Assembly: GCA_973895155.1 (NCBI GenBank)
Contig: OZ316896.1
Span: 6,774,132-6,838,131, forward strand
Direction: 5' to 3'
DNA from: Marsupella aquatica
Taxonomy: Eukaryota > Plantae > Marchantiophyta
Length of the DNA: 64,000 bases
Under the pieces are notes generated by a model. That model was given only the letters and a program-made list of their open reading frames with translations. It did not search any database and had not been told where the DNA came from. Shown in pieces: positions 1 to 52,094 of the stretch (positions are counted from its first letter, which is position 1; each line of letters starts with the position of its first letter). A program made the position numbers and the translations under genes.

Positions 1-180
1 CATAATGTGTTTGTGGTTTCATATGCTTGGCTTGTGGAATCAGTAGCAGCTGGGAAGCGTCAAAACCCAATGGACTATGATCTTTTTGAGGCCTGGCCAC
101 GGAAGGGTCAGGATCCTTACAGAGAGGACTATGAGACAACAAGTGAGGAATGGGTCATTAGCGATTCTGAATCAGAGTGA
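1..180 (+). CDS. 3' end of BRCT-domain cargo ORF (open in copy 1)
   Basis: Frame 1 reads HNVFVVSYAWLVESVAAGKRQNPMDYDLFEAW...SESE*; reverse complement of ~25901-26082; YAWLVES is the BRCT WxxxS helix. Confidence 0.8.
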   Translation, partial: HNVFVVSYAWLVESVAAGKRQNPMDYDLFEAWPRKGQDPYREDYETTSEEWVISDSESE

Positions 181-754
181 GGAGTAGTAGCATCAGTTTG
201 GACACAAGTTTTTTTGTATAAATCAGATCATTGAAATAAATGTGATCTTTGAACTAATGTACCTTGTTATGGTTGGTGGCAGTTGGGCTTATTTTACTGT
301 TGGCGGATTGTTGTTTCCTGCTGCCTGGGGGTGTCACTGTAAACGTACATGCAGAGGCGGTACATTTGAGGACAGCGGAGGAGGTGGTGACACCCTCCAA
401 CATTTAGAAATTTTGTGTCATTCACTTGACAATAGGTACACTACTTGCGAACCTGTTTTTTTCTTTTGGGGTGGTTTAGGGTTTGTGAGAATTTAGTACA
501 CGTTATGTTAACTCTTTTGGCAGATACAGTCAGGGATATATGGAACACAAATACCACCATTAGGCATCCTTGTTCACTGCTGTCCATGACTGCAGAGCTC
601 CCAGCCTGTTACAATGCACCCTGGTCACCACCCTCCCCAGACCCAGCCCAGGGCACAGGCACTGCCTTTGCATCATCCCACAAGGATATCACGCCATGAT
701 AATAAGCTTTGGCAGCGTGAAAGGTTACGAACCAGACTTTCAGGAGCCAGTAGG

Positions 755-4345: not shown

Positions 4346-4501
4346 GTAATGTGAATTGTTTGCATAGACATTAGTGAGGGGAAGGATGTGTAATAAAGTA
4401 ATTCTGAAGCAACACAGATGTATGGATGGATGCCTGGTGATTGTGGTTGCATTGTGTTATACGGGGTGACCATAGATGACATGTTTTTGTGGTCCAGTAG
4501 G

Positions 4502-8699: not shown

Positions 8700-9064
8700 T
8701 GGTTCTGTTGTGTGACGCGGGCCAGGGTCTCCATTGGTCTCTCCTGTGACACTAAATAGTCACACGCTAGTCGTTGTTGAATGCGGGTAAGTCATGTATG
8801 TGATTTACGATGTGACTCGCTGAAGTCATATTGCAGTCACGTCGAAACAAGGCTAGACTCCACAATAAAGTCACAGATCAGTCACAAATGGGTATCAAGC
8901 AAGTTGCAAAGCCCAGTATCAATAGTGACTTCCATTTTTTGGTCTCAACTTTTGCAACTCCAAGGGTCACAGCGTGGGTCAAGTCACGTTGAGTCACAAT
9001 GAAGTCACATGAGCCAAAATGAGTCATATATTGCGGTCTCAGTTCACCTCGGATTCTTCTAGTG
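8700..9064 (+). repeat. CACTA 3' subterminal repeats and TIR (9054-9064)
   Basis: Dense GTCAC/GAGTCA/TGAC motifs in both orientations; terminal 11 bp ttcttctagtg identical to terminus at 33846-33856. Confidence 0.8.
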
Positions 9065-9979
9065 CAGGGTATGGAGAAGATGTTCAAAGTTGGCTTTGAA
9101 GATGACTTCTCTATCAGGGTCTAGAAACAGAGGTTTGGGTACTGGATTTCTATGCACTTTGTTTGGGATTGTGGTCAGGTCAAGATGGAACAACAAAGGC
9201 AAGTGTGAAGACTTTGGTTGTTGATCAAGTATTTGAAAGTCAACCACTCTAGTGGCAGAGGTAGGTGTGGCAAGAAGGTAATCAATGGTACTACATCCTT
9301 GTTTAGATCTAAAAGTGTAACCAGATGATTGGGGAAATCTCTCAAGCCTATTCAATATTCTTAGATTACAAGAAGCTCCCAAATGCAAAAAGTGACGTGT
9401 CATGTCATTTGTTCTGGTGTCAAGAGCCTCTCTCACCCAAGGTAGCTCTTCACTACATGATGACCAAGGTAAAGTTCCTAAGTCCTCACTTTCAGTAAAT
9501 TGTTCATTAGATACCCTGGCATTAAAGTCCCCCACTATCCATGTCTCCCCTAGTGGTGATATATCATGAATGACTTGGATTAACCTATGAAATGGATAAT
9601 GTGCATCAGCAATTCCCATCTTATAGACATTCATATTAAGGGGAGCAAAGTAGGTGACAATCAGAAATGATGGAGTACCTCTGGTATGAAGTCTCACCAC
9701 CATGAACTGCTTGCTGGGATCTTCATGCTCAATAGAGGTGATGTGTTGAAGTTGATTCTTGGTGTAGACAGCAATGCCTCCAAACCCTCTTCCCCGTGTG
9801 GTCTTCTTCTCATTGAAGATGGATTGTATGCAAGTAAAGCCTTTAATGCTAGGTAGAGCATTTCCCTCATATTCCCAAGTCTCCGTGAAAAGCAAGATGT
9901 CAAAATTCTCAAACAAAGGTTCCCCTCCAATTGCTGTTTCTATGGAAAGTCCTGAAACATTCCATGCCATGACTCTCAA
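9065..9979 (-). CDS. LINE ORF2 apurinic-like endonuclease domain (truncated)
   Basis: MRVMAWNVSGL, DILLFTETW, GGIAVY, IVGDFNAR, STIDYLL, SSHLPL motifs. Confidence 0.93.
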
Positions 9980-9991
9980 GGTCCCGATCCA

Positions 9992-10762
9992 TCATTTAGA
10001 AACAACTCTCTTCTTATTGGTAACAACAGCTTGTCCATTGCGCAAGTAGGCTACCAATCCTTGGTCTTTGGCTACCCTCACCTTCTCAAGCTCAATTTTC
10101 CTTGCTTGGACTTGTGTGGGAGTCAGATCATCATCCAACCAAATCCTTAGCCCTTTAAGCATGCTCCTGTTAGTCATCACTCTAGCTTTCTCGGATTCAG
10201 CTGCAAACTTCACCAAGATTGGACGTGGAAGGTCCCCCTTCTTTTGCCCAATCCTATATGCTTGCAAAATGATAGGGTCATGCACTTTCATCTGAGATTG
10301 GAAGAATGAAATTGCTACCTTCTTGGTGTCTTCCTTCTCCTCCTCAACAAGGCCTGATATTTTGCAGTTGCTGACTCTTGCATGCTGGTTCTTGTGTTCT
10401 TCCTCTGGTGCTCTCCTCTCCTCCTCCTTGGCTTGGACAAATTCCATATGTGATTGTTTTGCAGCCTGTGCAAAGGTTTTGAGCTTTTCCTCAATCTCCC
10501 CTACAGCCTCATGTATCACTGATTTCTCTGGGCACATACTCTTCTCCATGTCTCCAAAACACGATGCAAGCAATGAGAGTTGCTTACCATTCTCCTGAGT
10601 TTGAGATCGAAGATCACTAATCAACCTCTTTTGCTTGACATTCTCATTCTTTAGCTCCGTCACCTCCTTGCTGAGTGTGGTAATCTCAATTGCGGAGTTT
10701 TCAACCACAACTAAGATTTTCTCAAGCAAAGCCTTGAGATGGGCAATCTCCTCCGTTGCCAT
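9992..10762 (-). CDS. LINE ORF1 (coiled coil + RRM-like)
   Basis: Heptad-rich N-terminus; NCKISGLVEE, YRIG...PRPILVKF, IWLDDDLT motifs typical of LINE ORF1 proteins. Confidence 0.85.
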   Translation of the reverse strand: MATEEIAHLKALLEKILVVVENSAIEITTLSKEVTELKNENVKQKRLISDLRSQTQENGKQLSLLASCFGDMEKSMCPEKSVIHEAVGEIEEKLKTFAQAAKQSHMEFVQAKEEERRAPEEEHKNQHARVSNCKISGLVEEEKEDTKKVAISFFQSQMKVHDPIILQAYRIGQKKGDLPRPILVKFAAESEKARVMTNRSMLKGLRIWLDDDLTPTQVQARKIELEKVRVAKDQGLVAYLRNGQAVVTNKKRVVSK

Positions 10763-10824
10763 CACAAAGCTGAAACTGTTGTTAGAATGTACTCTTATAC
10801 GACAAATAGAAATTGGGAGCAGTA

Positions 10825-11430
10825 GAGGATGTCAATTGCAACTCTACCTTTGCCAGTGATACACTCTCGCTGTTTGCAACACTCTGGCAAAGTCTGAGCT
10901 CAAACCGCAGCCGATTTCCCTTCCAACTCGAAGTGAAATTTTGCCCCAAGCTCAGAATCCCAAAACTGGACACGTAGCAGATCGTGCATGCTAAAGTGCA
11001 TACCAAACGATGTCGGTTGCAGCTCTAACTTTGCCAGTGATACATTCTCGCTGTTTCCAATGCTCTGGCAAAGTCTGAGCTTAAACCGCAGCCGATTTCC
11101 CTTCCAACTCGAAGTGAAATTTCGCCCCAAGCTCAGAATTGCGAAACTGGAGACGTAACAGATTGTGCATGCTAAAGTGCATATCAAACGATGTCGGTTA
11201 CAGCTCTAACTTTGCCAGTGATACATTCTTGCTGTTTCCAATGCTCTGGCAAAATCTGAGCTCAAACCGCAACCGATTGCCCTTCCAACTCGAAGTGAAA
11301 TTTTGCCCCAAGCTCAGAATCGCGAAACTGGAGACGTAGCAGATCGCGCATGCTAAAGAGCATACCAAACGATGTCAGTTGCAGCTCTAACTTTGCCAGT
11401 GATACATTCTTGCTGTTTCCAATGCTCTGT
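10825..11430 (-). repeat. About 3.3 tandem 181-bp monomers in the LINE 5' UTR
   Basis: tgccagtgataca recurs at 10851, 11032, 11213, 11394. Confidence 0.92.
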
Positions 11431-11472
11431 TTCCAATGCTCTGGCAACTTGAGTCGATGGTTTCCAATGCTC

Positions 11473-12760
11473 TGAATACTTGAGTCGATGGTTCGACTGT
11501 CCAACCTGCACACATACATTTTCTACCATTATACATGTGTAGAATCCCCCCACATGAATGGACTCCAGATATAATGAGTTCTTCCATTGCTGACAAGATC
11601 AGACATTACCTGCCCCTCTTCCAGCGTTCGTAGGTACTCTATTTTGAAATCCCTGCCCATTACCTTCACCACCTTCCCAACCTTGTTCATTCCACGACCC
11701 ACCATCATCCTCCCAACCTGGTTCAACCCATGTCTGTCCTTGTGAACATTGAAACTGATCATTACCAGCATTTGCCCAATCAGGTTGGGCAGAATCTGCA
11801 TGCAATGGCAGGTGGACAGAATTTCATGTTGTATGAATCCAATACATCCAAAACAATGTCAAAAATTGATATGCAGTCTGAAATTCTTAAGTGCCATGCC
11901 TTGACAAAAACTGGCATATAGATATATACTCACATCCCCATGGTTGAGGTGGACGTCCATACCCACGAGACTGTGGGTTTGGACCTGCACTGTCTCTACC
12001 ACAGGCATAACCTTGACCTTGCCCTCTGCCATAGTATTGGGCACCAACCTGGGATCTACCACTACTACCACCTTGCCAACTTTGATTAGAGGTCAGCCCC
12101 CCTGCTGGTATGGTGCATGCACAAGCATTGCAGGCAAAACAAACTGACAGGACGCTACATCACATCACCAACTACAATGTCACAAACTAAGCAAGGTACA
12201 TATGTGTAGTACTAAACATATCAAACCTCTAAACAAGAGAGTTTAACTCATAACCTTGTCGGGAAAACTACTTACGTGTTTCTTTTGGGGCTGCTCTGCA
12301 ATGTATTCATCTTCATAATCCCCATCCTCATCCATTTTCTCTGGAAAATACTCATCATCTGCATCTTCTTGTCTAGTGTCTGCACCCACCTGTACAGCAT
12401 CCATGTCATCTCCACATTTTTCCATTGTAGGTACGACCTTCTTGCTTAACCTTTCACTCCAATGCACAGGCCCAGAGATAGTGCTAGTCACCCTCCTTGC
12501 ATACTCTTTTTGTTTCTTTGAAAGTTTTGTGGCTCTGCGACATTCCAATATGAAAATACAGTCATAATTTCAGTGCCACATTGAACTATTCATGTCACAC
12601 AAACTCAGCGGAGGATTGTGGTTGAGAATTGTTCCCTTACAATTCAGCCACATCCTTTTTCAGTCCCAGTTTTGCGATTTTGGCTTTCACGTATGCTCGA
12701 TGTTCCATAGCTTTCCTTTCATACTCACACATCTCTGTGTCACTCTCTTCCATCTAACTG
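11473..12760 (-). pseudogene. 5' exons of TnpA-like gene, copy 2
   Basis: Reverse-complement match to 4495-5786 (e.g. ORF 12243-12548 vs 4707-5012). Confidence 0.85.
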
Positions 12761-12798
12761 GACCACAAAAACATGTCATCTATGGTCACCCTGTATAA

Positions 12799-13415
12799 GT
12801 CAAAGTCAAAGTCAAATTCTAAGCTCCACGACGACCCAATGAGTCAAGGGAGCTGTGGCAAAAAAGCCAAATACAAAGCAAAGAAATGAGTCAAATGCTC
12901 ATGTGAGGATCTCTACATCCTCACTAATAACAAACTAAGGACCTTAAGAGTCACTAATGTGTAATGCTATCACATCATTTCCTATCCACTGCCATGATAT
13001 ACAATCCAAGTTGCTTTGGTGGCAACCTAAATAGATCATGCAGATCAGAAACAAGGATTTGATGTGCTATTTGAACCTCCTCATACCGTCTACATGCTAT
13101 GAATACATGATATTCATTCTCAATGCTGCCACTATCACAAAGTCTACACACCCTATCCTGCCTCCTAATTCCCTTCCATCTACCCTCCTCTACCTCCAAG
13201 TGATGTGAGTTGAGTCTATATCTAGCAATCACTTGTCTCAACCTCATAGAAATGGGAGCTCTAAGATACTCTTGTTCTTCATACAACATCATGGGGTTTA
13301 CATCCCTCATAAAATACTGTAATCTAGGGCTAGGATCACTCCAAAGTTTTCTAATAGCTTTATCACGCAAGAGTGACCAAAGCTATTAGAAAACTTTAGG
13401 GTTTAGGGTTTAGGG
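12799..13415 (-). mobile_element. 5'-truncated LINE (family B, (TTTGAC)n tail, RTEX-like) with telomeric 5' cap
   Basis: Tail (gtcaaa)3 at 12799-12816; ORF2 C-terminus YRLNSHHLEVEEGRW...CRLC...ENEYHVFIAC; TSD (g)tataa; empty site visible in copy 1 at ~4455. Confidence 0.92.
13395..13415 (+). repeat. Interstitial telomeric repeat (TTTAGGG)3
   Basis: Three perfect Arabidopsis-type repeats. Confidence 0.95.
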
Positions 13416-13531
13416 TATAACACAATGCAACCACAATCACCAGGCATCCATCCATATATCTCTGTTGCTTCAGAATTACTTTATTACACATCCTTCCCCT
13501 CACTAATGTCCATGCAAACAATTCACATTAC

Positions 13532-15172: not shown

Positions 15173-15564
15173 AAAAGCAAGCTAGAGGGGGTATTATTTG
15201 ATGTCACAAATGTCACATTTCAAATACCATAGAGGATGGTACTTGAAATGTACAAGGACCAAAAAGGACCATGGAAGGGCTTAGATGTATCTGAATGGGT
15301 GGCCAAGATTAGACAAGCATTACTGTGTAGCCCAAGAAGTAAAGGTGATGATTTCCTTGGTGTTGCCCTTCACTACCCACAGCCGACATTGTCACTTAAG
15401 GTACTAAGCTTAAGTAGTACTTTCTTGGAATTCAAATACCTCGTAACTCGTGTTGACCCTATGGTTTGAACTCTATGCAAGTTCCCAAGTCCATTGTACA
15501 TGGCGCGTTAGGTCGTGAGTCCTTCTACAAACATCGTTACGTGTCATATACTCGTGGACGCACT

Positions 15565-15825
15565 ACACCTGTAAGTTTTTCTTAATCTTGAGTAAGTTTT
15601 TCTTGAGGGAAACAAGCTGCCCCGACATTGCGATGCAGAAATTTGGTGGTACTCACGGATGCACTATACCAAGTAAGTTTTTCTTGCGAGAAACAAGCCC
15701 AAACATTGCGTATGTTGCAGAAATTTAGTGGTACTCACACACGCACTATACTTGTAAGTTTTTCTTGCAAGAAACAAGCCCAGACATTGAGAGAAACAAG
15801 CGCGGACATCGCGTTGCAGAACTTT
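15565..15825. repeat. Degenerate ~80-90 bp tandem repeat (about 3 copies)
   Basis: gtaagtttttcttg..agaaacaagc...acattg and gcagaaattt.gtggtactcac recur. Confidence 0.75.
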
Positions 15826-16188
15826 TGTGTTACCTTGTCCTTTTCGTGTTCGACATTCACCTTCTTTTGCTCCTGTTTGGAGCTTCAATGTTGCGTTTTG
15901 CGTCGCATTGCCATGCATTGTGGTCTAAGGGATATTAAGGACTGTAAACATCTGACCTCGTAGCGAATGTTCCTTACTCTGCGACAGGAAGCTGCGGCAT
16001 TACTCTACGTTTAGACCTTCATTACTCTGTGGCATTACTCTATGTTTAGGAGAACAAACATTGTAGCTCAAGGGCGGTTGAAGTAGGGTGAATCTCTACC
16101 CTCACACATGATCTCATGGTGTTAACCCAACATCATGAGTAGTGTTTGGGATGAAGCAGCGAAAGCCAAAAGAGACCGACGAAATTTT

Positions 16189-18081
16189 GGTAATGGTAAT
16201 GGTAATGTATTATAAGCTCCGGGACCATGAAAGTCAAAGGAGCTGCCACAAAAAGTAAAGTACAATGCAATCAAAGAAAAGAGCAACCAAAAGAGATTGC
16301 TCAGAAGAGGACAACTATGTCCTCAAAGAAACTATGGACCTAGAGAGCCCTGAAAGATTTTCCAAACCTATTCTCCTTTCCCTATCCACCGCAAAGATAT
16401 ATCTTCCAAGTTGCTGAGGGGGCAGACCAAACAATGCATACAAATCTTTCACCAAGATTTGAGATGCCATCCTAACCCCCTCATAAAACTTGCAAGCAAT
16501 GAATACATGATATTCATTCTCTATACTAGAGCTATCACATAACTGACAAACCCTCTTTTTCCTGTCAATATCCTTCCATCTCCCTTGTTCTACTTCAAGG
16601 TGGTGTGAGCTTAGTCTATACTGAGCAATAAGTTGTCTAAGTTGTACTGAGATAGTGCTAGATAAGTATTCTTGTTCTCGATATTTCTTCATGGGGTTCA
16701 CATCTCTCATGTAGTATTGCTGCCGTGGGCTAGGTTCATGCCAAAGTTTGTGCAAAGCCTTTTGCTCAAGTTTTGCTCTTAGCTTGGTTGGGTGTGTTGG
16801 CCATTCATGTTCAGGAAAATCCCAAGCATGGGCCCACCTGCACACATCTGCATACCACCCTTTAGCTGAAGATGAGCGCAAGGCATGAAAAGGAAATCTG
16901 TTTTCCTCCAACTCTCTTACACGCATGATGTATTTGAGTGTGTGGAAGAGGGCCTCCACCTCCAAAGGAAACAAGCCTGCCTCTGCAAGTGTAAGTGCAT
17001 ATGGGGTTTGTGACTTGATCCCAAGCTCCATCTCAAGAAATAGCTTTTGCAGCCCCTCAATCTGTTGCCACCCAGATTTAGACACACCTGCTCCCCAAAT
17101 TGGTGCTCCATAAAGAATGACTGGTTTCACCAAAGCTCCAAAGAGATGTTTCCTTAACCTCCAAGTGTGTAGACCAGCTTTTTTGCATTTGTTCATGAAT
17201 GCATAAAAAGCTCTGTACCCATTGGCAGCCCTAGATTTTACACATGAGGCCCAACTCAAGTTTTGAGAGAACTCCACCCCAAGGTATTTGTAGGTCCTCA
17301 CAAATTCCACCAGATTCCCTTGGAAGTAGAGCTCTGGATTTTGTGGTGTGCCAATGCCCAAACACTTGGTCTTCTTGAGGTTGACTACCATCCCTGTTGC
17401 TTGACAAAACTCCTCCAAGGCATTGAGATGTCTTTGCAAAGCTTCTTGAGCATGAGCAAGTAGGACCACATCATCTGCAAATATAAGAAGTTGGAGGACA
17501 AACCTACCCAATTGAGTGCCAACTCCACCATGCTCCTCCAAAATGTTGTGTAGCTGATCAATGAAGATGCCAAATAGAGTTGGTGAGAGAGGACAACCTT
17601 GGATCACCCCAAGAGTGCTCCAGATTTCTTCAGAGGTTTCCTTTGAAAGTTTGATGCGCACTTCTTGGTACAATTTAGAAACAGCCAACCTGAGCTCTTC
17701 AGGCACTTCCAACTCCACCATCCTATCCCAAAGCTTGGATCGGGAAACTTTGTCAAAGGCCTTGGAGAAGTCCACAAACAAGCAAAATAATGGTTTATGT
17801 GGAGATTTGGCCTTTTCACACAACACCCTCAAGCAGAGAATGTGATCCATAGTGCTGAATTCTCTCCTAAAACCTGCTTGTGAAGGTGCCCTTTTCATCT
17901 CACTCTCCAACCAAGAGCTTAATCTGGCTTCAAGTAGTCCTCCCAAAACTTTAGCAAAAGTATTGCCTACCATGATGGTTCTGTAGTTGTGCACATCATC
18001 CTTGTTGCCTGCCTTGAAGATAGGCACCACTCTTCTGGTCATCCAAGCTTTAGCTTAGGGTTTAGGGTTTAGGGTTTAGGG
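16189..18081 (-). mobile_element. 5'-truncated LINE (family A, (ATTACC)n tail, RTEX-like) with telomeric 5' cap
   Basis: (ggtaat)3 at 16189-16206, RT ORF, TTTAGGG array at 18055-18081; no TSD seen. Confidence 0.92.
16315..18042 (-). CDS. LINE ORF2 reverse transcriptase and C-terminal CCHC region (5'-truncated)
   Basis: PIFKAG..NYRTI, QAGFR, FVDFSKAFDKV, GVIQGCPLSPTLF, FADD, YKYLG, C-x2-C...EYH...C. Confidence 0.95.
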   Translation of the reverse strand: MTRRVVPIFKAGNKDDVHNYRTIMVGNTFAKVLGGLLEARLSSWLESEMKRAPSQAGFRREFSTMDHILCLRVLCEKAKSPHKPLFCLFVDFSKAFDKVSRSKLWDRMVELEVPEELRLAVSKLYQEVRIKLSKETSEEIWSTLGVIQGCPLSPTLFGIFIDQLHNILEEHGGVGTQLGRFVLQLLIFADDVVLLAHAQEALQRHLNALEEFCQATGMVVNLKKTKCLGIGTPQNPELYFQGNLVEFVRTYKYLGVEFSQNLSWASCVKSRAANGYRAFYAFMNKCKKAGLHTWRLRKHLFGALVKPVILYGAPIWGAGVSKSGWQQIEGLQKLFLEMELGIKSQTPYALTLAEAGLFPLEVEALFHTLKYIMRVRELEENRFPFHALRSSSAKGWYADVCRWAHAWDFPEHEWPTHPTKLRAKLEQKALHKLWHEPSPRQQYYMRDVNPMKKYREQEYLSSTISVQLRQLIAQYRLSSHHLEVEQGRWKDIDRKKRVCQLCDSSSIENEYHVFIACKFYEGVRMASQILVKDLYALFGLPPQQLGRYIFAVDRERRIGLENLSGLSRSIVSLRT

Positions 18082-18091
18082 TAAACCTAAA
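18055..18091 (+). repeat. Interstitial telomeric repeat TTAGGG(TTTAGGG)3 followed by inverted taaacctaaa
   Basis: Seen directly. Confidence 0.92.
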
Positions 18092-18094
18092 GCC

Positions 18095-18393
18095 ATTGCT
18101 TGATTCAGCTCATGCACCAAGTTTGTTAGTAAAGAGGGTCCTCCCCACAAAAGAAGCTCCAAGTTCAGGCCCAACAGATCTTTAGCTTTCCCATGTTGCT
18201 ATCAATACAATCAGACATGGGAAATGCCACAAATGCCTCCATGTCCTAGCCGATGTGAGCATGCTTTATAAATAAAGCGCCGAGGATGGGGGAAGGTTGA
18301 ATGAAAGTTCACAATATGAACCACGACATCTCGAAATGAAGCAGACTGCCCTGCTTCCATGACCTGCTCAACTTCTGTTACAGGAGTCCCCAT
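18095..18393 (-). pseudogene. RPA1 C-terminal (Zn OB-fold)-like remnant
   Basis: VVVHIVNF...RFIYKACSHRLGHGGICG, then after stops AKDLLGLNLELL; resembles the YxAC...C and AExLLG motifs of Rep_fac-A_C. Confidence 0.4.
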
Positions 18394-18429
18394 TCTTCTG
18401 CGTCAACAAGATCCTGCAAAACTACAAGT

Positions 18430-18935
18430 CCAATACTCAAATCAATACTCAAGGATTCCCGATGGATATTCAATGACAAAACCTTGCTTGCACTACCACA
18501 ACATGACACACAATCCTCAAGGGATTACACTACTACTCAAAGGTATTGAACTAATACTCGCAGGAATTTGAAACAATACTCAAACGCGTAACTTACATAA
18601 TACTCAAAGGTATTTACATAATACTACAAGGTATTTACATAATACTACACGGTATTGTGACAATACTACAAGGTATTGTGACAATACTACAAGGTATTAT
18701 GATAATAATACACGTTATTGTGATAATACTCAATGGTATTATGATAATACTCAATGGTATTGAGATAAAACTCAACGGTATTGAGATAATAGTACTTGAG
18801 GTATTATGAAAATACCAGGAATTGACTAACACCTGAAACTCTTACAGTAATACCTTATTGTATTAGACTAATACCCGAAGGTACTAAACTAATACTTAGT
18901 ATTAGAGTAACAATCACAGGTACCAGGTAAATACT
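18430..18935. repeat. Degenerate ~21-22 bp minisatellite (AATACT(A)CAAGGTATT core)
   Basis: About 20 units such as aatactacaaggtattgtgac; core aatac...gtatt is self-complementary. Confidence 0.88.
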
Positions 18936-19228
18936 CTGTGACATGAAAGCACAGCCAGAGAAATTACCTGAGTCTGGTAGTGCATGTAAAGTGAGTATTC
19001 AAATCTACATAATATGCATGTATGAAGTGAGTGAACCCTAAACCAAATAAACCTGTGACAATACATAGAAATTGACTGGTACAAAGGATGAGCAATAGGA
19101 GAGTAAGAAAATTTACCATCAATGCATCCACATTGGGTATCTAGACAGACATCTAGGGTTCATGAATGCTCAGAGGCAGACGACAATGTCAACATAGTAG
19201 TCCTATTTAAATTACCCAGCCTCACCTA

Positions 19229-21900
19229 TTACAATTTCCTAGCTGATCCACGACCTCTTCCTCGTCCTTTGACAGGTGGTTTAACCTTTTCAACTGACTT
19301 TAAGGCAACATTACCACCCTTGTCATGAGCAGGATCCAATCCTAGACTGATAGCAGCACCCCTTAACTTCCCCTTAGCTTGAGAGGAGCTTGTGCCATTC
19401 TTCTCCTCGGCCTTTCACTTTTTGCTACTCCCCTTACAAGACTCAGAGCCAGGCTCAGAGTCATTAGAGACATTCTCCACCTGAGTGACCGAACCAGGTT
19501 CTGGAGCAGCACCCTTTTCGACCTTCACAATTGAGAGATTCACCTCACCCTTGGACTCCGGGGCTGAAGTCTGCATTTGAACTAGAGTAGGAACTGACTT
19601 GATGTCAACTTTTGAGACCCTCAACAACTCATGGTGTACATGTGCAGCTTTACCAACAGCCTCATGATATTCGATAGACTTCTTCACACTTTCCTGCAGC
19701 GCAAAACAATATCCCACAATTAGCAATTGACCAATATCCCCGCTAATACCAATGGTACGACAAAGCCAGATCATACTATGCCAACAACTCGAGTGACCAG
19801 GTTTAGTGATATACCTTTGAATATAACTTGGTCACTTTCTTATGCTTCAAGGCTTGATTCTCCCTCCTTCCCTTTAAATTCAAGGCATTCTTGCAATACA
19901 GATCACTAAGGCTCTTTTGAAAAGAGATAGATTGTTCTTCCAAACCCCAATCATCTGCTAGCTTCACTACATCTGGATGGTCCACTCGGGATGAACCCCA
20001 GCACTTCAGCCAGGCTGGATGAAACACTTCAGCACAGGCTAAACACTTAGGAGGTTTACTGTCACCGTTTCGAAGCAACGGGAACAAACAACTTGGATGA
20101 TAGCAATGTCCACATGATGTGGGAATCCAATTGTTACAAAAGAAGCCAAGAGAGCAAACAGGGCATTCGCTTATGGGAAAATAAGCCTCCTCTGTCTGCG
20201 CAGGACAAATGATACTAATAGGGCATACATAAATTGCATGAGAGGTATTCAAGTGCTCCTTTAGTCTTGCGCACTCTAGATTGAGAGCATCATAGGACTT
20301 TGTCAATTTGTATGCTGTATGATCTAGCTTGTGCAAGGTCTGTTTCCCATACTCCTGTTCCTCATCCAACTTATTCAACTCTTTCATAAGAACTTGAGCA
20401 TCTGCGACTACATCAATGCGCTTCTGCTTTGAAGCAGCCAAGTTTGCTTGCAGTATATTTGTTTCATTGCAACACGAGACATATTTTTCTCGCAACCCTT
20501 TGCAAAGTGCCTGCACAAGTCCCGGCCAACACAACAGGATTGTTATAAGCAACTGAAAATCACATTCAACAAAGATAATATGAAAACAAATGTAGCTTTA
20601 AACAAAATGAGATCATTTACCTCGTCTTCAGAATGCTCTTCGTCAGGATCTTGCAGCAGTTCAAGATCCTCAGATACTTGAGCTTGCTCTTTGACCTGAG
20701 CATGGATGCGTCGCTGTACGTCGTGGATGATATTAGTGAGTTCATTCTTTTGCACTTTCAACCTTGACAATGTCGTTTGAATTGAGTTGATTCGATCAGT
20801 AGCCTCATTCTGAGCTGCTGTGAATTGAATGGCATCTTGTGTAGACTTCTGCATTTCAGGGCCAAGCTCTGCAAGACTAGCCTCCACTACCTCCAACATT
20901 GTTTCAAGAAGTGTATTCTTCTGGTGTGGAACTGGCGTGCCAGTAGTGACTCCAGTGCAAAGTTTTTTGGTTTGAGCTTCTGGAAAACCTATGAAACTAT
21001 TTTCTGGTGACATTTCATGATTCGGACCACCTACCTGAGAAAGGGACTCACCTTGCTCTTGCTCATTTGCCTCTAGTCCTAACACCGTACCTGGAGATAT
21101 TGTATCTTGCTGCAATTGGTTCATGTTTTGCGGGAAGTTTTGACTACTCGAATGAGGACCCGAGGCTTCGGGTGACTTGAGCTCTAGGTTTGCCGGTTTC
21201 TCCTCCCCAGGTGATTCACAATGTGCTCCACTCGCAACGGACTGTATTCTATTGAAGAGGTCTAGAGGAGGGATATACTTTGTCTCAATCCTCTTCCACG
21301 GTGGCGAGTTTCTATCGATTGGAGACTTCCTTACAAACCTCAACCGAAGCTGCCCTCTATGCTTGTCTGCACCACAAGCTGCCCAATTCACAGGTTTTTT
21401 TAAGATCCGCTCATAGTACAAACCTTTGGCAACCTCCACAGTGTATGGTTGAAACTTTCCGATTCCGTCCAGCGCACAGGTAAGCATGGCGATGTCGTCG
21501 GCAGGAATCCCCTTAACGCCATCCTTCTTGTAGCCGTTCTTCCCAGACTTGTTCCCAAAATACTCCTCCAACACCTCAGCGGACACGTCTTCACTTGTGA
21601 GCTACTTCGGAATGCTTCCCACATTGGGCATTGTGGAAATGATCGATGTCCTTCACAAACTCATCAACTGTCCACTCTTCTGATGAGGGGACCTTTACAA
21701 GACTCTCACCGTGTGATTTCGGTGGTAGCTTGTGACTCGTGGACTTTCCAGGCATTTCAGAAGACATACCTGTTGTGTAGCTTGAGTTCTCCCAGCTGCT
21801 CGCTCCAAGCGTTGGCAACAAACTATTTGGGCGCAAACCTGCGCTATGCGACTCCGCCCGAGTCCCTTGAAAGCACGTTACTCCAGAGTCTGACTCGTCC
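19229..21900 (-). CDS. Multi-exon, probably decayed gene: TE-type N-terminal domain, coiled coil, RING-H2 finger, basic tail
   Basis: CPVC-x13-CGHCYHPSC-x14-CLAC in ORF 19803-20552; coiled coil in 20543-21586; donor gtaaat at ~20601. Confidence 0.65.
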
Positions 21901-22679
21901 CTTCCAGTGCCTTGCGCCTGAATTACAACACAAGAATGTGAGTTCAATGTCATCTTATTTGAAAAGATTGAATGTGTGCCTAATGCGTGGCCTAGATCAT
22001 AGAAGACATTCAATATTAAACAAGTGGGGAAGAAAACAATCAGAGCAACTTTCCGAATGTCCTCAACTTTCAAAATTGTAGCTCAGGTCCTGTAACTCTT
22101 CAATCTCCACAACGCAAACGAGAATGCAAAAAGTTCCAGAGATTCAAATGCTTGCAGCCCTCGACTAAAAGCAACTTCCTGCGCCAAAATGCAATGTCAT
22201 TCCCTCCCGCATTCCCTCCCCTGCTACCTAATCAAGGATCACAATGTTGCGGTCTTCTCCAACTGGCACATTGCGCAACATTCAAACTGGAGTACGCATC
22301 GTGAAAGTTGATTCAACGCGACAAAAAGGAAATAGAAAGGAAGTGCGCACTTTGCGCCCAGGTCTCCCTTGATTGCAGGCAATCCTACGGTTTGGATCAT
22401 CCTTCTAGCAGGAAGGGTCAAGATCCAACAATGCTACTCCCTCAACCACCACCATTGATCTTCATTGCCACCACGGCACGGTCCGGATTTGCTGACCTTT
22501 CTAATTTTGAAATGATAGGAGGTTACGGTAGTAATGTCTTTTCGGCCCTTCCTCCCTCCAACGTGATTGTACTTGCAACAACCTCCTCCCTCATCATTAC
22601 ATGACTTGTAGTACTAACTATACTATGAGCTTTGTTGTAGGGGTGGTATTAGGAGGGGTATTATTTTGCTCAAATTAGA

Positions 22680-24615: not shown

Positions 24616-25054
24616 CTTGCTGGCTCCTGAAAATCTGGTTCGTAACCTTTCATGCTGCCAAAGCTCATTATCATGGCATAAAATCCTTGTGGGATGATGC
24701 AAAGGCAGTGTCTGTGCCCTGGGCTGGGTTTGGGGAGGGTGGTGACCAGGGTGCATTGTAACAGGCCGAAAGCTCTGCAATCATGGACAACAGTGAACAA
24801 GGATGCCTACTGGTGGTATTTGTGTTCCATCCCTGACTGTATCTGCTAAAAGAGTTAACATAACATGTAATAAATGTACACAAACCCTAAACCACCCCAA
24901 AAGAAAAAAAACAGGTTCTTGAGTAGTGTACCTATTGTCAAGTGAATGACACAAAATTCCTAAATGTTGGAGGGTGTCACCACCTCCTCCGCTGTCCTCA
25001 AATGTACCGCCTCTGCATGTACACCCCATGACCATATCAGAGTCCAATCATGTA

Positions 25055-25162
25055 AAGTCAAAGTCAAAGTCAAATTCTAAACTCCACGACGACCCAATGA
25101 GTCAAGGGAGCTGTGGCAAAAAAGCCAAATACAAAGCAAAGAAATGAATCAAATGCTCATGC
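25055..25162 (-). mobile_element. 108-bp 3' fragment of LINE family B
   Basis: Near-identical to 12797-12903 including (gtcaaa)3; TSD tcatgta at 25048-25054 and 25163-25169. Confidence 0.9.
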
Positions 25163-25274
25163 TCATGTATAGTCATAGGCACAGGTGTGAGAGCCGTATC
25201 AGATATCTCACCTTATTACCAGGTGAGATATGGGTATCAACCCTATTCTCGATGCCACTCAGACCTCAGGTACT

Positions 25275-25555
25275 TACCATGGGGGTCTTGCATCCGTGCC
25301 TACAAGCAGTGGATGCAATGCCCTCCACTGGGGGCAAGTTGCTACCAAGTCCCTCCACCGGGTATTAATTTGTCTATATTTGCAGATATCTTGTGCGCAA
25401 GACACCACAAGAACCCTCGGCCAGACATGTGTAAAGAACTATATCATCTGCCAAATCAGGCAACAAGGAACCACCTACAACATCGTGCTTGTCTAACTCA
25501 TCTGTTGAAAAGTAGATGTCCTCTTCGGACTGTGCATCCTCATTCACCATAGATT
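25275..25555 (-). pseudogene. F-box cargo gene fragment (1-bp frameshift)
   Basis: SLLPDLADDIVL then, shifting frame, THVWPRVLVVSCAQDICKYRQINTRWRDLVATCPQW. Confidence 0.65.
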
Positions 25556-25900
25556 CAGCGTCTCTTGCATCCTCGGGCGGTGCCAAGAAATGTTTTAGCA
25601 CCAACCCATGCAGGAGAGTCCAAATTGTGGCCAGCCATATGACAACCCGGAGGAGGAGCCGTAATAGCGCCTATTGATCTAGGAAAGGCAACATACCCAC
25701 CAAAGTCTGCCGCCAAGATTTGACCCCACCCAGTACGTTTACAATGACACCCCCAGGCAGCACGAAACAACAATCCGCCAACAGTCAAATAAGTCCAACT
25801 GCCACCAACCATAACAAGGTACATTAGTTCAAAGATCACATTTATTTCAATGATGTGATTTATACAAAAAAACTTGTGTCCAAACTGATGCTACTACTCC

Positions 25901-26781
25901 TCACTCTGATTCAAAATTGCTAATGACCCATTCCTGACTTGTTGTCTCATAGTCCTCTCTGTAAGGATCCTGACCCTTCCGTGGCCAGGCCTCAAAAAGA
26001 TCATCTAGTCCATTGGGTTTTGACGCTTCCCAACTGCTACTGATTCCACAAGCCAAGCATATGAAACCACAAACACATTATGGGACATGACATAAAAGCG
26101 AATGTCTCCCTTCCCAAATTTGCGGCAGGCTTTGGGATATGACTTAGTAATGACATGAGTGGTGTCCTCTATTATATTCTCCTCCACTGTCCCACCTAGG
26201 TCAAGCACTGTGGACTTGTACACTTTGCACTTAACCTCTCCAATTCCCGCCTCCACAAATACCATGCTCAGCCCTTTCAAAATGGGGGTTGGTTGCTTTG
26301 TCTCCTCAGCCAACATACTCTTCAGCCTTCTTGAGCTCTGTCCTTTGTTGAGTACAGGTCCATATTGGACATCAGCAAGCCGTGCCTTTGCTTCCCAGAC
26401 TTCTTGTTCAGCCCAAGCTGATGCAGTAGCTTCTTCATCCTCCCACAGTTTGTATTGCTCAATATCTTGTACAATCTGATGTGCTATGGAATCTGTGATC
26501 CAAGAGGGCTCAACTACTTTTAGGCCTTGCTCAATAATTGTAGAATTCATGTAGGACCATGACCACTTCTTTATCACTGATAGCCATGTCCCTGCAACAA
26601 CATGTGTAGTCTCTGGAGTGATGTCCTGAACTACAGTGCCATGGAGCTCAAAGAATTGTTTCTGTACAGTTGGCCAATGCACTTTGGTCAACCCATGCTG
26701 GCCATGGACCAAAATGACTCTGACCCCTGTAAACACTGCTGGGTGGTCACACTTTCTACGTTTCCCAGGTTCCATGTACAC
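25901..26781 (-). pseudogene. Tandem BRCT-domain cargo gene (premature stop from 2-bp insertion at ~26005)
   Basis: Two repeats: VFTGVRVILV...LHGTVVQDITPETTHVVA...VVEPSWITDSI and ILKGLSMVFV...LGGTVEENIIEDTTHVIT...VVSYAWLVESV. Confidence 0.88.
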
Positions 26782-27367
26782 ACACCCTACGTGATCAGAG
26801 AAAATTTTGGAAGAATGGGTTCACCTGACAATATAAGGACAACAAAATTCTTGCTTTTTGAGTTGATCCGGTACATTGGTGCTCAGGTCCGAGTTTGATA
26901 GGTACAGGGGATATGTGAACAAGACGTACTAGGCACCTACACGGATGCAGGACATTGTTTGAATATATACTAGAAAATCCATATCGAAGGTGAAATGAAG
27001 TGCAACCAACTTGTCATGGCACATACATATTTTGTTGTAAAGGAGGATACATTCAATGACAAACTTATAGGGCAATTTGATTAATTGCATGCCTCATAAT
27101 TTATATGCTTACAATTTTGAAGTCCTGTTTTAATTTAGCAGCCTGATGAGAGTGTTTATGAAAATGACCACTCAGCCTAAATACTTCCAAGAAGGCTTGT
27201 AAGGATAAGTTTTTATGGGCATGTACCCAGCCACTAACGCTAGAGCACAGGATAAGTGCTGCCTGTATAAACTCGCCTACCCAACTCCTTTTCAAAATTG
27301 GAATCTCTGCAATCTCCAAAAATGGTACATCCACATTAGGTGCACTATGCATGTACAATGTTTAGCT

Positions 27368-33856: not shown

Positions 33857-34719
33857 TACAGATGCCTCCACAATATTCAAACGATCACCCAATTTACTTT
33901 TCACTCGAGGGAGTCCACACTCTAATGACTTCAACTGTTCACACATCTCTGTCAGAGTTGTAACAGTTCCCTATCATAACACACCTTACATATCTCAGAT
34001 AACTGTCCCCAAGAATTGGTTGCTTTCTTCCTACTACATTTACTTCTAATGCTGAAGGCCAAATAGTCTACGAACATATAGAATTACAACATAATCACCT
34101 GTTTGGAAGTCACACTTGTCACCTCACTCCTTTATTTCATGAACTCCTCTCTCACTTCTTGTGCTAATGGTTCTTCATCTGTCAATTTCTTCTGCATGCC
34201 ACATCAACATACATATGAATGAAACCAAGTGTTGATCGTCAATGAAAATGTAATAATGGTAGCAAGATGATAAGTTTGAGGCTTACTATTAGACATGTCA
34301 GTGCCTTACCAATTGTTCTTTTACTGGAGCATAACTTCCTCTCCTAGCTTGTGAAAGGTGTTTCACTTTGCCTTGAGCATTTGACATCAGTTCACTCTTG
34401 CTTTGCCCAGCCTCCGACATGAACCCTTTGATTAATCGTGTCCATTGTGGCAAACAGCGGACTAGGTGATCTCCTTTCCACATGTAACGCTTAGACTGTT
34501 GTTGTATCCGATCCCTTTGAGTAGTGGAGCCTGGTGGGTACTGCTTGTGCTGCAAGAAATTCAGAGTGTCCAAATCCTCCCAGATGTCCACAATTGATTG
34601 GTCAACAATGTTGCAACTAAGCAAGGCAAGATAGGCAGAGGCCTCAAGTGTAGAGCTAGGACTAGCATGATCAAAATCTTGCCGTGCATCTGAAAAATCT
34701 GTTGAAGTGATCAAAGGAG

Positions 34720-35225
34720 TGCGAGACATGGTGTCAGCATTCTGGTGAGTAATTCCAGGTCTATGAATAACTTCAAACTCATATTCTTGCAAAATGAGGG
34801 CCCAACGAGCTAGCTTGCCGGTAAGCTTATCATTGGTCATCAACCACTTTAGTGGCTGGTGATCGATAAAGAGCATGAACTTAGTGCCATACAGGTAGGG
34901 TCTGAAATGTATGATAGCCCACACAACAGCCAAGCATTCACCTTCATAAGAGGAGTAGTTGCTCGCAGCCTTGTTATTGCTCCTAGACGCATAAGCAATG
35001 ACATACTCCCTCCCGTCCTCATCAGATTGACCCAGAATGGCACCAATACCTAGAGCACTCCAATCTGTATGCAAAATGAATGTTTTGCTGAAATGAGGCC
35101 TTCTGAGAACAGGGTAACTTGATAACTTTCCCTTCAAAGTTTCAAATGCCACCTGAGCGTCTTCAGTCCATTTCCAGGTAACATCTTTCTTAAGCAACAT
35201 GTACAATGGGTGAGCAATGATGCTA
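34720..35225 (-). pseudogene. Ty3/gypsy RNase H
   Basis: FILHTDWSALGIGAILGQ, IAYASR, NYSSYEGECLAVVWAI, DHQPL, ARWALILQEY, NADTMSR. Confidence 0.95.
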
Positions 35226-36120
35226 AAGTATGTAAATTCTGTAGTAATTACATAGACCAATGAAGCTTTGCAAAGTGTGAGTATCAGTAGGCTTGGGCTT
35301 CTCAAGAATAGACACCACTTTAGCCCAATGAGCCATAGTGCCATTTGGAATGATTCGATGCCCAAGGTAAACCACTGAGGTAACAGCAAACTCACACTTC
35401 TTGGGATGGATCTTCATATTAACATTTCTTAGCCTCCTGAACAACTCTTCAAGATGTAATAAGTGTTGCTCAAAACCCTTGCTATGAACTAACACATCAT
35501 CAATATAGCATTTTAGGAAATTAGCACCTTCTAGTACTTGATCCATCACCCGTTGAAAAAAGACGGGTGCATTCTTCAGTCCAAATGGCATCACCAGCCA
35601 TTCCCACAATTGATTGCTCCAATGAAAAGTTGTCTTCTTACGGTCCTCAGCCAGAATAATGATCTGGTTGAAGCCTTGCCTCAAGTCTACGAGGGTAAAG
35701 ATATCAGAATCTCCAATGGAGTCAAAGAGCTCTTCAGCGATAGGCATGGGTACTTGTCTTGAGTTGTGACCAGATTGAGTGGCCTGTAGTCCCCACACAT
35801 CCTCTTCTCTGTCCATAGCCCACTAGAATCTTTCTTTGTTGGCATCACTGTAGCCGCTGCAAAGTCAGAGTTTGAGGGCTGGATCAGACCTGCTTCGTAA
35901 AGCTCTTTGCATCTCTCATCCACCAGCTGCCACTCATGCTTGCTCAACCGGTGTCTCCGCCGATAAATAGGTCTCTCATCGGTCAGCTCAATGGAGAATT
36001 GCATCACCTTGCACTTGCCCAAGTCTCTCATTGAGAAAGCAAACACATCTTCATAGCTCAACAGCAAATTCAGTACCTGATCCCGTTGCTTCTTACTCAA
36101 CTGATTACCCATCACAAACT
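35225..36120 (-). pseudogene. Ty3/gypsy reverse transcriptase
   Basis: GLIQPSNS, RMCGDYRPLN...DKYP, DLRQGFNQI, MPFGLKNAP, YIDD, KKCEF...YLGH, SFIGLCNYYR. Confidence 0.95.
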
Positions 36121-36329
36121 GGAAATTTGCAACGCATAGCGTAGAGCTAGTGGGTGTACTAGAAGAACTTGATGTGCTTTCCTCTTTGCCTGGTGTGATC
36201 TGGTCCATGCCATGCTCTGATTTTGAAATTTCAGTCACATTACAAGGTACCTCTCCCCCCCAACACTAGGAGTGAAATGTAGAGTGGAGAGGATGGGTAA
36301 ATGTACTTCATCAGGGTGCCAGGTAAGAA

Positions 36330-37335
36330 GTTCATTAAGGCGAGAGGTTTGGTCACCCATAGTAGGAACAGTATGCATCTGGAAAAGAATACAAGTAACC
36401 AAAAGCCATGTTAAAGCATTAAGATCCATGACTCTGCCAAGAAGAGAATTCCGCTCTAGCCTAGTCACTTTAACATGACCAGTAGTGCCAGTTTGGAAAC
36501 CCATAGCTTGCTCTCGCTCCTCCAGGCTTGGCTCATCCCATGTATCCAAAGCGTGACGGTAGACCAGCCCTGGTCTATCCCCTTGGAAGGCATGGGCGCC
36601 AGGAAACAAAACAAAGGTAGGCCAAGCACCTCTTGGCTCCCCAATGGTGTTAGCAGGGTACCAAGGTGCTCTCTCTTGCCGAGTGACGGGCTGACAAGAG
36701 CTATTAGCATCCAAAATCTGGTGCAACTGTAATGTAGGGTCCCTGACCGTATGTTTTAGAGCCAATTGTAGTAAGCAAACCGGTGCAATATTGGTCCAGA
36801 AATTATGCAAACAATGCGCATAAGACCCACATTGGGCTGCATCAATTAAGAACGGTGGACCAAGATAGTGTTGGACTAGAATCTGAAAATCCTCTTGGAT
36901 GTTCTTCCGCTGGTCAAATTGAGAGGGTGTGTTCTCAATGACATAACCAACAGCAGGGTAAAGAGCCTGGGCCCAATTGAGTATTTGTACCAGGTCCATG
37001 AAGAGCCTTGATCGGGGATCACTCAAACAAGCTGCAGAACCTGCAACAGAGAAACCTTGGCATGCCCAGCCAGCAATGATGAGGTCCAAGGAACCAAGTA
37101 GCTCAATGTGTTTCTGTTGTAGCAACTGAACATCAGGAGGAAAGAGAGTGAAGCTTGCCTTCCATGCACTAGGTGGAAATTGTTGTGGGAATTCCAACAT
37201 CCGTGATTGAGCCACCTTCCTTGCATATGGGTCAGTGTCCACATAGATGTACCTCTTCGCCATCATGCCAGACTACAAGACCCCCTCTAGGCCTGTAGAA
37301 ATGCCACCAAAAAGCTCCAGCAAGGTAATGCCATC
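36330..37335 (-). pseudogene. C5 cytosine DNA methyltransferase domain (DNMT3-like, linear motif order)
   Basis: Motif I LLELFGGISTG, II YVDTD, III PDV, IV DLIIAGWACQGFS, V RSRLF, VI VIENT, VIII IDAAQCGSYAHCLHNFWTNI, IX EREQAMGF, X LLGRVMD. Confidence 0.9.
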
Positions 37336-37606
37336 TTGAGGAGGTGTCCAAGTGATTAGTGTGCTCAAGATTGGGAAGATGGGCTGGCCATGGCTTTGTA
37401 GGCCCTCACATTGCTGTAGAGCAATAGTCAATGGTCCATGGGCAGCTCTTAGCCGTTGGACAACCTCAGGTTGAGGGGCTAACTCAGTAGGTGCAACCAG
37501 TAAGCTCTCATTGGCTTGTGTGGTAGCCAACTCCTCTTCATCTTCTTCAATCCAATTGTGCAATGAATGGTTGACATAGGAGACTGTATGCACCTCTTGC
37601 AACACA

Positions 37607-38476
37607 CAGTAGTGAGCACTAGGGATATGCTCTTAAACGCCTACTTCGACCTTGCGATTAATGGCCATTTAACTACCTTCTCCTCAGTAATCTCATTTAA
37701 ACGATTAACCGACCTTCGAGAGGCGGCACTCCGTCTATCTCGACACAGTCCCCGTAAGTGAATCCGACCAAGTGCTCTTGAATGTCGAGTTCCATCTTCC
37801 ACTTCTTAGGCACTTCAGCCTCGGCCAACACTAACCCCTCTCTATACACAATCTCAATGAACCCACACCACTCGCGGTAAGTCATCAAGCAAATCGGAAT
37901 GTTCTCGTATAGTAACTGACGGGAAATAAGATGGGTGCTGATAGAACAGATCCACAGTTCCAGTGATCTTAAGGTAATCAAGGAGCAAGACTTGTCGTCA
38001 CTGCTGTCTGCGTTCATGGTTTTTAGTAGCCGTGACCTGATTAAGTCCGACTGTCCTTTGAATCAGCCTGCCTGGCAATTGATTTCCGGATTGTGTGGGT
38101 GACTATGACAGGGTTACCCTAAGCAAGTACCCCAGTATCACGTTTACCCTTGTATGATGGAGGTGTATGACGACCAGTGTATCACCTTCAAAACACACTA
38201 TCTCCAACCAGACACCGCTTCTCACTAGCTGTCTGTTCAACCTATACCTTGAGGCGCTGGCCCGTAAGGTTCTGGTTTGCAATGAGACATATTCATTCAT
38301 CGTTGCGATTAACGAGTAACGACTTGCTGCATAAGGCAAATTCCTTCTCTCTCTCTCTCTCTCTCTGATTTGACGGTCTCATTCACTGCTCAAGTGCGTA
38401 CTTCACTCTGTTGCATTCATTCCAAACTCTCTCTTTATACTCAAAGACTACTCAACTGAGTAGGGACACTATTACA
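37607..38476. repeat. Possible LTR (limits uncertain)
   Basis: Abruptly truncates the DNMT ORF; ends ...cactattaCA; contains a (CT)n run; no partner LTR, PPT or TSD found. Confidence 0.3.
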
Positions 38477-38764
38477 AAATTGCTGGCATTCCTAAGGTGA
38501 GCGGAGCTCTACCTTGCCCCAGACTTCTAGCAAAAAGTGACAGAGCGCCTATCGCTCCACAGCCTCTAAATACCTATTCCTCCTGTCCGTCTCTGCCCGA
38601 GGCCTCTACTACTTCTTGGGATGCGCTGATTACAGTTGGACGACTCGCGCCTCCTCTTTGATCTCCTTCGCTCGTTCATCAAGAACGCTAACTAATGCCT
38701 ACCAGAACGATGAGTGGAAGCCAAGATCTGCTGATTACTATGTCAAGAAGTTCTGTCTTCCTGG

Positions 38765-40733: not shown

Positions 40734-40937
40734 CTCCACAAAATGAATAACCGCTGGTCCTTGCTTACTACTTGCTAAATACTCTTGGTTGACCTCTAGT
40801 TGACACTTCTAAACCTAAAGAAAAACTATAATATTGCCGGTGTAATTTTTATCGTTTACATTCTCCTTTGCTTACCTACGGATTCGTCCTCGATATCCGT
40901 TATGCTTGGTATACGTTGGGGACAAGTCGTCACCGGT

Positions 40938-43900: not shown

Positions 43901-44420
43901 TAAGGGTCGTTCCTTATTCTTGGCGGTGAGTGCCCCTCCGGTGGCTTCCGTAGATGCTTGATGGGGGGTCACGCCGATACAGGCTACCATTTTAATGGGT
44001 AGCTCGTACCCTTCTCCATCCACTTGATTCTCGTTAGGTGGTGCTGTCGGCAGTTGATAGCTGTCGTCGTCCTCGTTGAGCGCCGGTACCGTATCGGAGT
44101 CGTTGCCGACTTTGCTTTCCCCTGGGTAGTCGTTAACCGTATCCTCTACTTCTCGTAAGTACACGTCGTTCCTTACGTGGTACGACTTCATCTTATTCCC
44201 GTTCACCCGTTGTTGCTCGCTCCCATCCTGGCTGGTAATTTGGAAGGTTCCATTTCCCCACGCCTTGAGGACGGTAAAGGGTCCTTCCCATTTAAGTCTC
44301 AACTTTCCTTTTTTATTCGTGCCCGCTTTCGGCACCACAGTACTAATTCCCCTTCCGTGAACATGGTTACCTCCCATTGATCGTCTATTCGTCGCTTGCG
44401 TTGTCCTTGTACATACTCTA
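40938..44420 (-). CDS. Integrase C-terminal GPY/F-SH3 region running into ~1000 aa of extra sequence (Athila-ORF-like domain + coiled coil; continues past stops to ~40938)
   Basis: KLRLKWEGPFTV...RVNGNKMKSY, then GLEKFVKLKW...CRGQVIKTNPRKLQELFKLP...DWSAFF and heptad repeats. Confidence 0.7.
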
Positions 44421-44421
44421 A

Positions 44422-45423: not shown

Positions 45424-45428
45424 TAGAT

Positions 45429-45739
45429 TTACAGGATGCCCTTGGCGTCTTGAAATAGCTCCATATCCGGTAATTGATCGTCTTCTTCCTTGCCTGTCTC
45501 TCCTGATTCGAGTCTACTCAAATAATCGGGTATGACATGGGTTTTCCCGGGTTTATAAATGATGGTGTAATCTAACTCAGCTAATAACAAAATCCATCTT
45601 GCAATTCGGCCCGACAGCTGTGGTTTGTTTACTAAGTTGACCAAGGCATTATGATCTACATAGAATATGAATCGATTCCCAAGTAAATAATGCCTAAATT
45701 TCTTTACTGCAAATATCATGGCTAATGCTTCCCTCTCAG
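45429..45739 (-). pseudogene. RNase H C-terminal half
   Basis: EREALAMIFAVKKFRHYLLG...DHNAL...GRIARWILLL...PDYLSR. Confidence 0.92.
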
Positions 45740-48870: not shown

Positions 48871-48873
48871 TAG

Positions 48874-52085: not shown

Positions 52086-52094
52086 AAAATCTCA

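Follow-up and report, generated by a model that had tools for sequence, protein, structure and literature searches.

How did telomere repeats come to lie between the 5′ end of an interstitial LINE and its own target site duplication (TSD)? In the window analysed here, a 64,000-nucleotide stretch of Marsupella aquatica DNA, a truncated LINE interrupts a CACTA transposon, and a preliminary description proposed that its stalled cDNA primed on itself, was extended by telomerase and was then joined to the target. The parts of this junction, namely TSD, LINE tail, ORF2 end, fold-back and telomere repeats, were all found in the order that had been described (Table 1).

The LINE insertion and its empty site

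The two CACTA copies of the window are in inverted orientation, share 94–97% identity, and match Transposase_21 and related families in Pfam; a search with the transposase gave no named relative among the 120 matches listed. A 622-bp insertion is present in copy 2 and absent from copy 1, and GTATAA, which occurs once at the empty site, flanks the filled site as two copies (6-bp TSD). The claim that the empty site has no telomeric DNA was borne out by CACTA copy 1 and by four of four public sequencing runs of related material: contigs in these runs omit exactly 622 letters at the CACTA insertion, with a joint at which 5–6 letters match both flanks (depth at most 5010), and because they skip the exact 622 letters they represent empty sites without telomeric DNA. 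Three runs with small shares of the region's words, one of them labelled a biocrust metagenome, form no part of this evidence. The highest share of the region's words in any run is 0.58; the filled LINE-telomere-TSD junction is spanned by no run contig, and the filled allele is known from the window's assembly alone. Both CACTA copies have a 12-nt telo-box-like motif near the transposase start (473–484 and 24882–24893). An ORF with twin BRCT domains (26005–26820), its start common to window positions 1–348, adjoins the transposase region of copy 2 and is probably CACTA cargo.

To judge from ORF2 homology, the tandem tail and the TSD, the inserted element is a 5′-truncated APE-type LINE inserted by target-primed reverse transcription. 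Its ORF2 C-terminus (12975–13382) consists of the last 135 codons, carries a CCHC-type motif, and is 73% identical to a full-length ORF2 with APE and RT domains (PF03372 and PF00078); the C-terminal fragment alone has no Pfam match. Tails of identical type were found in two metagenome loci (L001 and L002) and at window positions 25054–25074. This first LINE is young: three differences in 501 bp (0.6%) separate it from family contigs of run X4. Hypothetical proteins of Riccia sorocarpa are the best named protein matches (48–49% identity), which together with the TTTAGGG repeat make a bryophyte host probable, and a homologue of the LINE protein falls in generic APE+RT clusters only (Atlas). From C-terminal motif and tail type, both this LINE and the second one described below are putative members of the RTEX (RTE-X) clade. 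Marchantia is reported to have TTTAGGG telomeres and RTE-X LINEs (10.1101/827881); the available text of PMC5753468 contains no definition of RTEX.

Table 1. Features of the two telomere tracts, their host LINEs and the empty CACTA site (window positions)
Feature	Position	Strand	Basis or remark
Empty site, CACTA copy 1	~4457–4462	-	One GTATAA, without telomeric DNA
TSD, left copy (GTATAA)	12793–12798	+	Final 2 nt also match LINE tail repeat
LINE 3′ tail, (AAGTCA)3.3	12797–12816	-	6-nt tandem repeat; repeat search
First LINE, 5′-truncated (3′ UTR and ORF2 C-terminus)	12799–13384	-	Family contigs, protein match
Fold-back arm 1, native LINE template	13343–13361	+	13356–13361 pairs with native cDNA end
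Final 6 native cDNA nt, microhomology priming snap-back	13379–13384	+	Loose ends in 3/4 runs, L001
Self-templated (snap-back) synthesis, 13 nt	13385–13397	+	Ends TTT, in telomere-repeat register
Perfect (TTTAGGG)3+1 run, 22 nt	13395–13416	+	G-rich on cDNA strand; exact
TSD, right copy	13415–13420	+	First 2 nt fit telomere register (joining microhomology)
Second LINE, 5′-truncated, related family	16188–18199	-	RT ORF 16315–18054, RVT_1 E 2.5e-31
Copy-specific telomeric insert, 27 nt	18054–18080	+	cDNA-strand polarity; native 6-nt telomere seed
Second LINE 5′ junction	18200–18224	+	15-nt filler, then 10-nt fold-back of 18187–18196

Fold-back and telomere repeats at the first 5′ junction

The 19-bp fold-back of the preliminary description stands as an exact inverted repeat, with 13343–13361 and 13379–13397 being perfect reverse complements (fold z −9.7, matched by 0 of 200 shuffles). 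Its composition has to be revised: as in a snap-back 5′ junction, 6 nt of native complementarity are followed by a non-native inverted copy, so that 6 bp are native microhomology and just 13 nt are self-templated. The chance of a 13-nt inverted copy at 13385–13397 is ~1e-6. Self-priming of the cDNA, as proposed earlier, gained further support, since the native end from which this exact 13-nt extension departs, at 13384, is predicted to fold over 6+4 bp (z −2.7, equalled by 3 of 200 shuffles); scored for a fold in which the 3′ end is paired, it comes fourth among the 541 possible end points.

The tract first described as (TTTAGGG)3 is an exact 22-nt run, of which the first 3 nt are common to the fold-back arm and the last 2 nt to the TSD; the part without a local source is accordingly refined to 17 nt (13398–13414). 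The repeats begin on a 3-nt in-register primer (13395–13397), and as zero letters of this tract are unexplained, it has no telomerase-RNA flank. The preliminary description had staked its claim in advance on the absence of repeats from this position in the LINE family, and none was found there in three of four runs or in L001. Past 13384 the family sequence is non-telomeric coding sequence (a loose end in those three runs; the fourth lacks coverage at this point), and the alignment with metagenome locus L001, which is 84% identical to the first LINE, stops exactly at 13384. The family contigs of both LINEs are without encoded telomere repeats. Across the window, two-repeat TTTAGGG matches number 5 against 0.01 expected, all within two tracts, and ~46 kb of non-redundant, non-LINE sequence contains no telomere tract of at least 14 nt.

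The second tract and the other LINE junctions

The window's sole other TTTAGGG tract (18055–18082) lies inside the second LINE, which shows 5 differences in 1461 bases (0.3%) from its family contigs and is also young. This copy has no clear TSD (best flank match, 5 nt) and is contained in a 7.5-kb insertion interrupting CACTA copy 2 (15199–22679), where 81-bp and 21-bp tandem repeats and two ORFs without a Pfam match (19803–20597 and 20543–21601) were also observed. The telomeric insert sits 118 nt before the 5′ truncation point. Family contigs omit the 27 letters after 18053 in three of four runs, the fourth run being too fragmented (depth omitting the letters: 1183/1220, 2115/2352 and 21/137), and a 9-residue gap is present at the insert position in 7 of 7 aligned homologues (of 191 found). 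In the manner of short interstitial telomeres (short ITS), the first tract is absent from the empty site, and both tracts are absent from the parent LINE sequence.

The second tract, too, starts on an in-register primer, its 6-nt native seed, but its first unit is a variant, and 1–2 odd letters (18053–18054) stand beside the repeats. The seed is one of three cDNA-strand 6-nt telomere seeds in 1985 native bases; the other strand has five. An 8-bp hairpin (18047–18053 with 18081–18093) holds the insert in its first arm; it is among the three longest perfect hairpins and in the top 1% of 30-nt RNA windows. At the 5′ junction of the second LINE, the 10-nt fold-back has a chance of ~0.002, and the source of the 15-nt filler (18200–18214) was not found within 15900–18500. 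A telomere-like loose end at 17753 proved to be coding sequence of a diverged family. Placement chance was calculated for a random tract against five LINE 5′ ends: it would land no more than 150 bp from such an end in the same polarity in ~0.7% of cases, for a distance picked after the data had been seen, and in LINE DNA in 6% with matching polarity or 12% in either. A link to retrotransposition is supported by this second, unselected tract, which lies near a different LINE 5′ end and has the same polarity as the first.

Telomere tracts occur in two of the four truncated LINE copies of the window. The truncated 5′ junctions of the others, at 25162 and 40530, are complete and without telomere repeats, as is one full-length LINE 5′ end (~11490). 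The first belongs to a 110-bp first-family fragment without telomeric DNA (25052–25162; 7-bp TSD at 25048–25054 and 25163–25169) within a ~710-bp insertion in CACTA copy 2 (25024–25733) that has a 4-bp duplication at its flanks. The second belongs to a truncated second-family copy (39172–40530), also without telomeric DNA, that has a 6-bp TSD and is 99.8% identical to 16188–17542. The full-length end is that of a related LINE represented by its 5′ half (9059–11490; ORF1 9992–10831, APE domain 9059–9991; 3′ half absent here), with a 5′ UTR in which a 181-bp unit is repeated 3.3 times in tandem, resembling a monomer promoter array.

A LINE-to-telomere junction in another copy was found neither among the 48 loose ends listed of 337 (24 of 103 for the first LINE, 24 of 234 for the second) nor among 13 joints (4 and 9) from five runs. 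The listed loose ends are mostly from diverged subfamilies, with about two resembling true 5′ junctions, and make a weak test; with short tracts falling below the joint threshold and contigs losing rare variants, these counts are evidence neither for nor against any frequency. A metagenome scan yielded the two loci L001 and L002 from 200 pattern matches, both ending before the 5′ junction; neither genome_contigs nor viral_contigs contained a match to the 25-nt LINE tail pattern, and the LINE protein aligned with 0 of 64 candidates in viral_contigs.

Retroelement remains (34298–46010) include RT-RNase H (34298–35413) and integrase (44422–45513) regions, a C5 DNA methylase-like ORF (36235–37272), and a 1026-aa ORF without a Pfam match (41396–44476). 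An inverted 1.1-kb repeat of 99% identity occupies 41856–42958 and 45925–47027, and 47000–64000 consists, as assembled, of 3.3 copies of near-identical 5067-bp tandem units, each with a gag-like ORF.

How the repeats may have been added

We hold with moderate confidence that the fold-back and the three telomere repeats were added during completion of the insertion, with telomerase, working at the free end of the cDNA, as the most likely agent. A nick and target-primed reverse transcription from the tail, which the TSD, the tail and knowledge of the family suggest, would have been followed by a halt at the observed end point 13384 and by the predicted self-pairing of the cDNA end. Snap-back copying, for which LINE RT and Pol theta are candidate enzymes, would account for the 13 inverted nucleotides present, and telomerase may then have extended the resulting TTT end in register with the G-rich repeats. 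Annealing of the cDNA to the second-nick overhang through the 2-nt microhomology at the right TSD would presumably come last and permit sealing with the TSD intact.

The action of telomerase accords with the absence of repeats at the empty sites of all four runs and in the family sequence, with a complete TSD outside the telomere tract, and with a perfect first tract containing zero variant units. A 3-nt in-register start is likewise described for short ITS linked to telomerase (PMC2246262). As the first LINE is young, an independent second break would have had only a short time in which to occur, and the other tract is also in a young LINE, on the same strand, at a seed, and in a copy ending in filler and fold-back. 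On the other side, a telomerase-RNA flank was not identified beside the repeats, two other truncated junctions of the window lack repeats, and the second tract, being internal, could have arisen only if synthesis returned to the LINE template afterwards or if a break came later. The telomerase-assisted completion route put forward in the preliminary description does not follow from these data: the two junctions without repeats were completed all the same, and occasional intrusion fits equally well. The first junction is best read as an occasional chromosome-healing intrusion on a retrotransposition intermediate that was slow to join, not as an obligatory step.

It is possible, though on balance we think it unlikely, that the timing was the same but the enzyme another, with LINE RT or Pol theta copying telomeric nucleic acid as junction filler. 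Either synthesis at the cDNA end would have switched to C-rich nucleic acid (telomerase RNA, the C-strand or a telo-box), or G-rich TERRA or a telomeric overhang would have served as template for the 3′ end of the target's second strand, which then joined the snap-back end by 3 nt. The latter route, absent from the preliminary description, predicts identical polarity and both microhomologies, and the tract has short microhomology at each end (3 nt and 2 nt), as is typical of templated fillers. Strand polarity and in-register start, both pointed out in the preliminary description, therefore do not identify telomerase, because an identical sequence would result if G-rich telomeric RNA or DNA were copied from the target's second-strand end. 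Some R2 junctions are fused to additional non-coding RNA (PMC11371274), yeast rad27 mutants insert telomeric fragments at breaks, where short fold-backs also form (PMC11724301), and TERRA has been proposed as a source of ITS (PMC7215372). The unrelated 15-nt filler at the second LINE junction and the 11–12-nt telomere-like motifs found elsewhere in the window, CACTA included, are also consistent with copied filler. Telomeric templates are, however, a tiny fraction of nucleic acid and yet would have been used in two of four truncated copies; each tract starts where the cDNA strand has an end compatible with telomere repeats; and three perfect tandem units could not be copied in one pass from local 12-nt motifs.

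A later double-strand break at the hairpin-forming junction or at the hairpin within the second LINE, independent of retrotransposition and patched with telomeric repeats, is an improbable origin for the tracts as a pair. Both adjoin potentially fragile inverted repeats (19 bp and 8 bp), and short ITS are known to form at breaks with in-register microhomology and can interrupt LINEs. At the first tract, though, such a break must have fallen exactly between the fold-back and the intact TSD without removing anything from either, and it is two young LINE copies that carry tracts while the ~46 kb of non-LINE sequence carries none. For the second, internal tract, a later break is the simpler reading, which we judge about evenly balanced there. 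It is highly improbable that the repeats are part of the element or target or were produced by the assembly, or that this copy descends from a telomere-resident element and was later internalised, and these readings are largely refuted: an artefact might be suspected at a filled junction that no run contig covers, but family contigs run natively past 13384 and omit the 27 nt at 18054, 9 codons missing from all seven aligned homologous proteins, a clean TSD in a CACTA element with known empty sites excludes a chromosome-end relic, and the 3′ ends of both LINEs do not adjoin telomere repeats.

Extension of cDNA by telomerase can also be put in a broader form, in which telomerase would regularly compete for cDNA 3′ ends at stalls and 5′ truncations, RT would sometimes resume on its RNA after the repeats, and active LINEs would be a main source of short ITS in this lineage and perhaps widely; we consider this generalization doubtful.

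Relation to known systems and significance

Short ITS and TERC-ITS are among the closest counterparts. As described in the available texts, they arise in one step at repaired breaks and involve in-register nucleotides (PMC2246262, PMC7215372, PMC8537989), and 3 of 27 TERC-ITS loci interrupt LINEs, so that inserts within older LINEs are known (PMC8537989). The present junction shares with them a few perfect repeats, gain in one step, absence at the empty site and an in-register start. It differs in that the primer would be new retrotransposon cDNA after snap-back, that the tract is inside a TSD, that the host is a plant (TTTAGGG), and that no telomerase-RNA flank was found here. In human cells, telomere repeats are captured at I-SceI breaks (PMC5110952).

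The cDNA end at 13384 resembles junctions of R2 and L1 elements. Repair at R2 junctions is reportedly the subject of a 2025 paper. R2 insertions whose cDNA snaps back before the 5′ end is joined form a described class, as do those with extra-template junctions (PMC11371274), and fold-back junctions of L1 are attributed to self-annealing of the cDNA (PMC11702581). In these systems, as appears to have happened here, the cDNA 3′ end primes on itself before target joining, and foreign templates can be added; in contrast, the extra template there is U6 RNA, with no telomeric repeats named in the available text, and the LINE clade differs.

Telomere-targeting retroelements such as TRAS and SART offer a further comparison; at the LINEs studied here, all four 3′ junctions in the window and both of those in L001 and L002 are without telomere repeats. 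Gladyshev and Arkhipova reportedly described, in 2007, truncated 5′ ends of Athena and Coprina capped by telomere. These endonuclease-deficient Penelope-like elements attach at chromosome ends to telomere overhangs via encoded reverse-complement repeats (PMC8557442). Here too retroelement cDNA meets telomere repeats, but the LINE is of the APE endonuclease ORF2 family, has no encoded telomere repeats and is interstitial. In Magnaporthe oryzae, two internal MoTeR relics with tracts at the 5′ boundary derive from chromosome ends (PMC7367193). MoTeR copies are likewise 5′-truncated non-LTR elements bounded by telomere repeats, which in their case are added de novo on 1–4-nt seeds; unlike the first LINE, with its target in transposon DNA, its TSD and its own 6-nt tail, MoTeR is described as telomere-targeting and as healed into chromosome ends after insertion. 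In the open-access literature, to which our search was confined (subscription journals were outside its scope), we found no published case in which an interstitial LINE has telomere repeats at its 5′ junction, inside the TSD.

What the window contains is a familiar kind of repair scar on a new substrate, with one case at a junction and another close to one, which falls short of a general pathway. The finding touches two open questions, how LINE 5′ ends are joined and where short interstitial telomeres originate, which would be linked if repeats join retrotransposon cDNA at a measurable rate. The claim is directly testable by counting junctions in the genome assembly of a bryophyte and in the telomerase mutants available in Physcomitrium (PMC8287931). 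If such additions are rare, this is a well-documented repair scar; if they occur at a measurable rate, telomerase would be shown to work on a novel class of substrate, and failed joining would risk truncating the chromosome.
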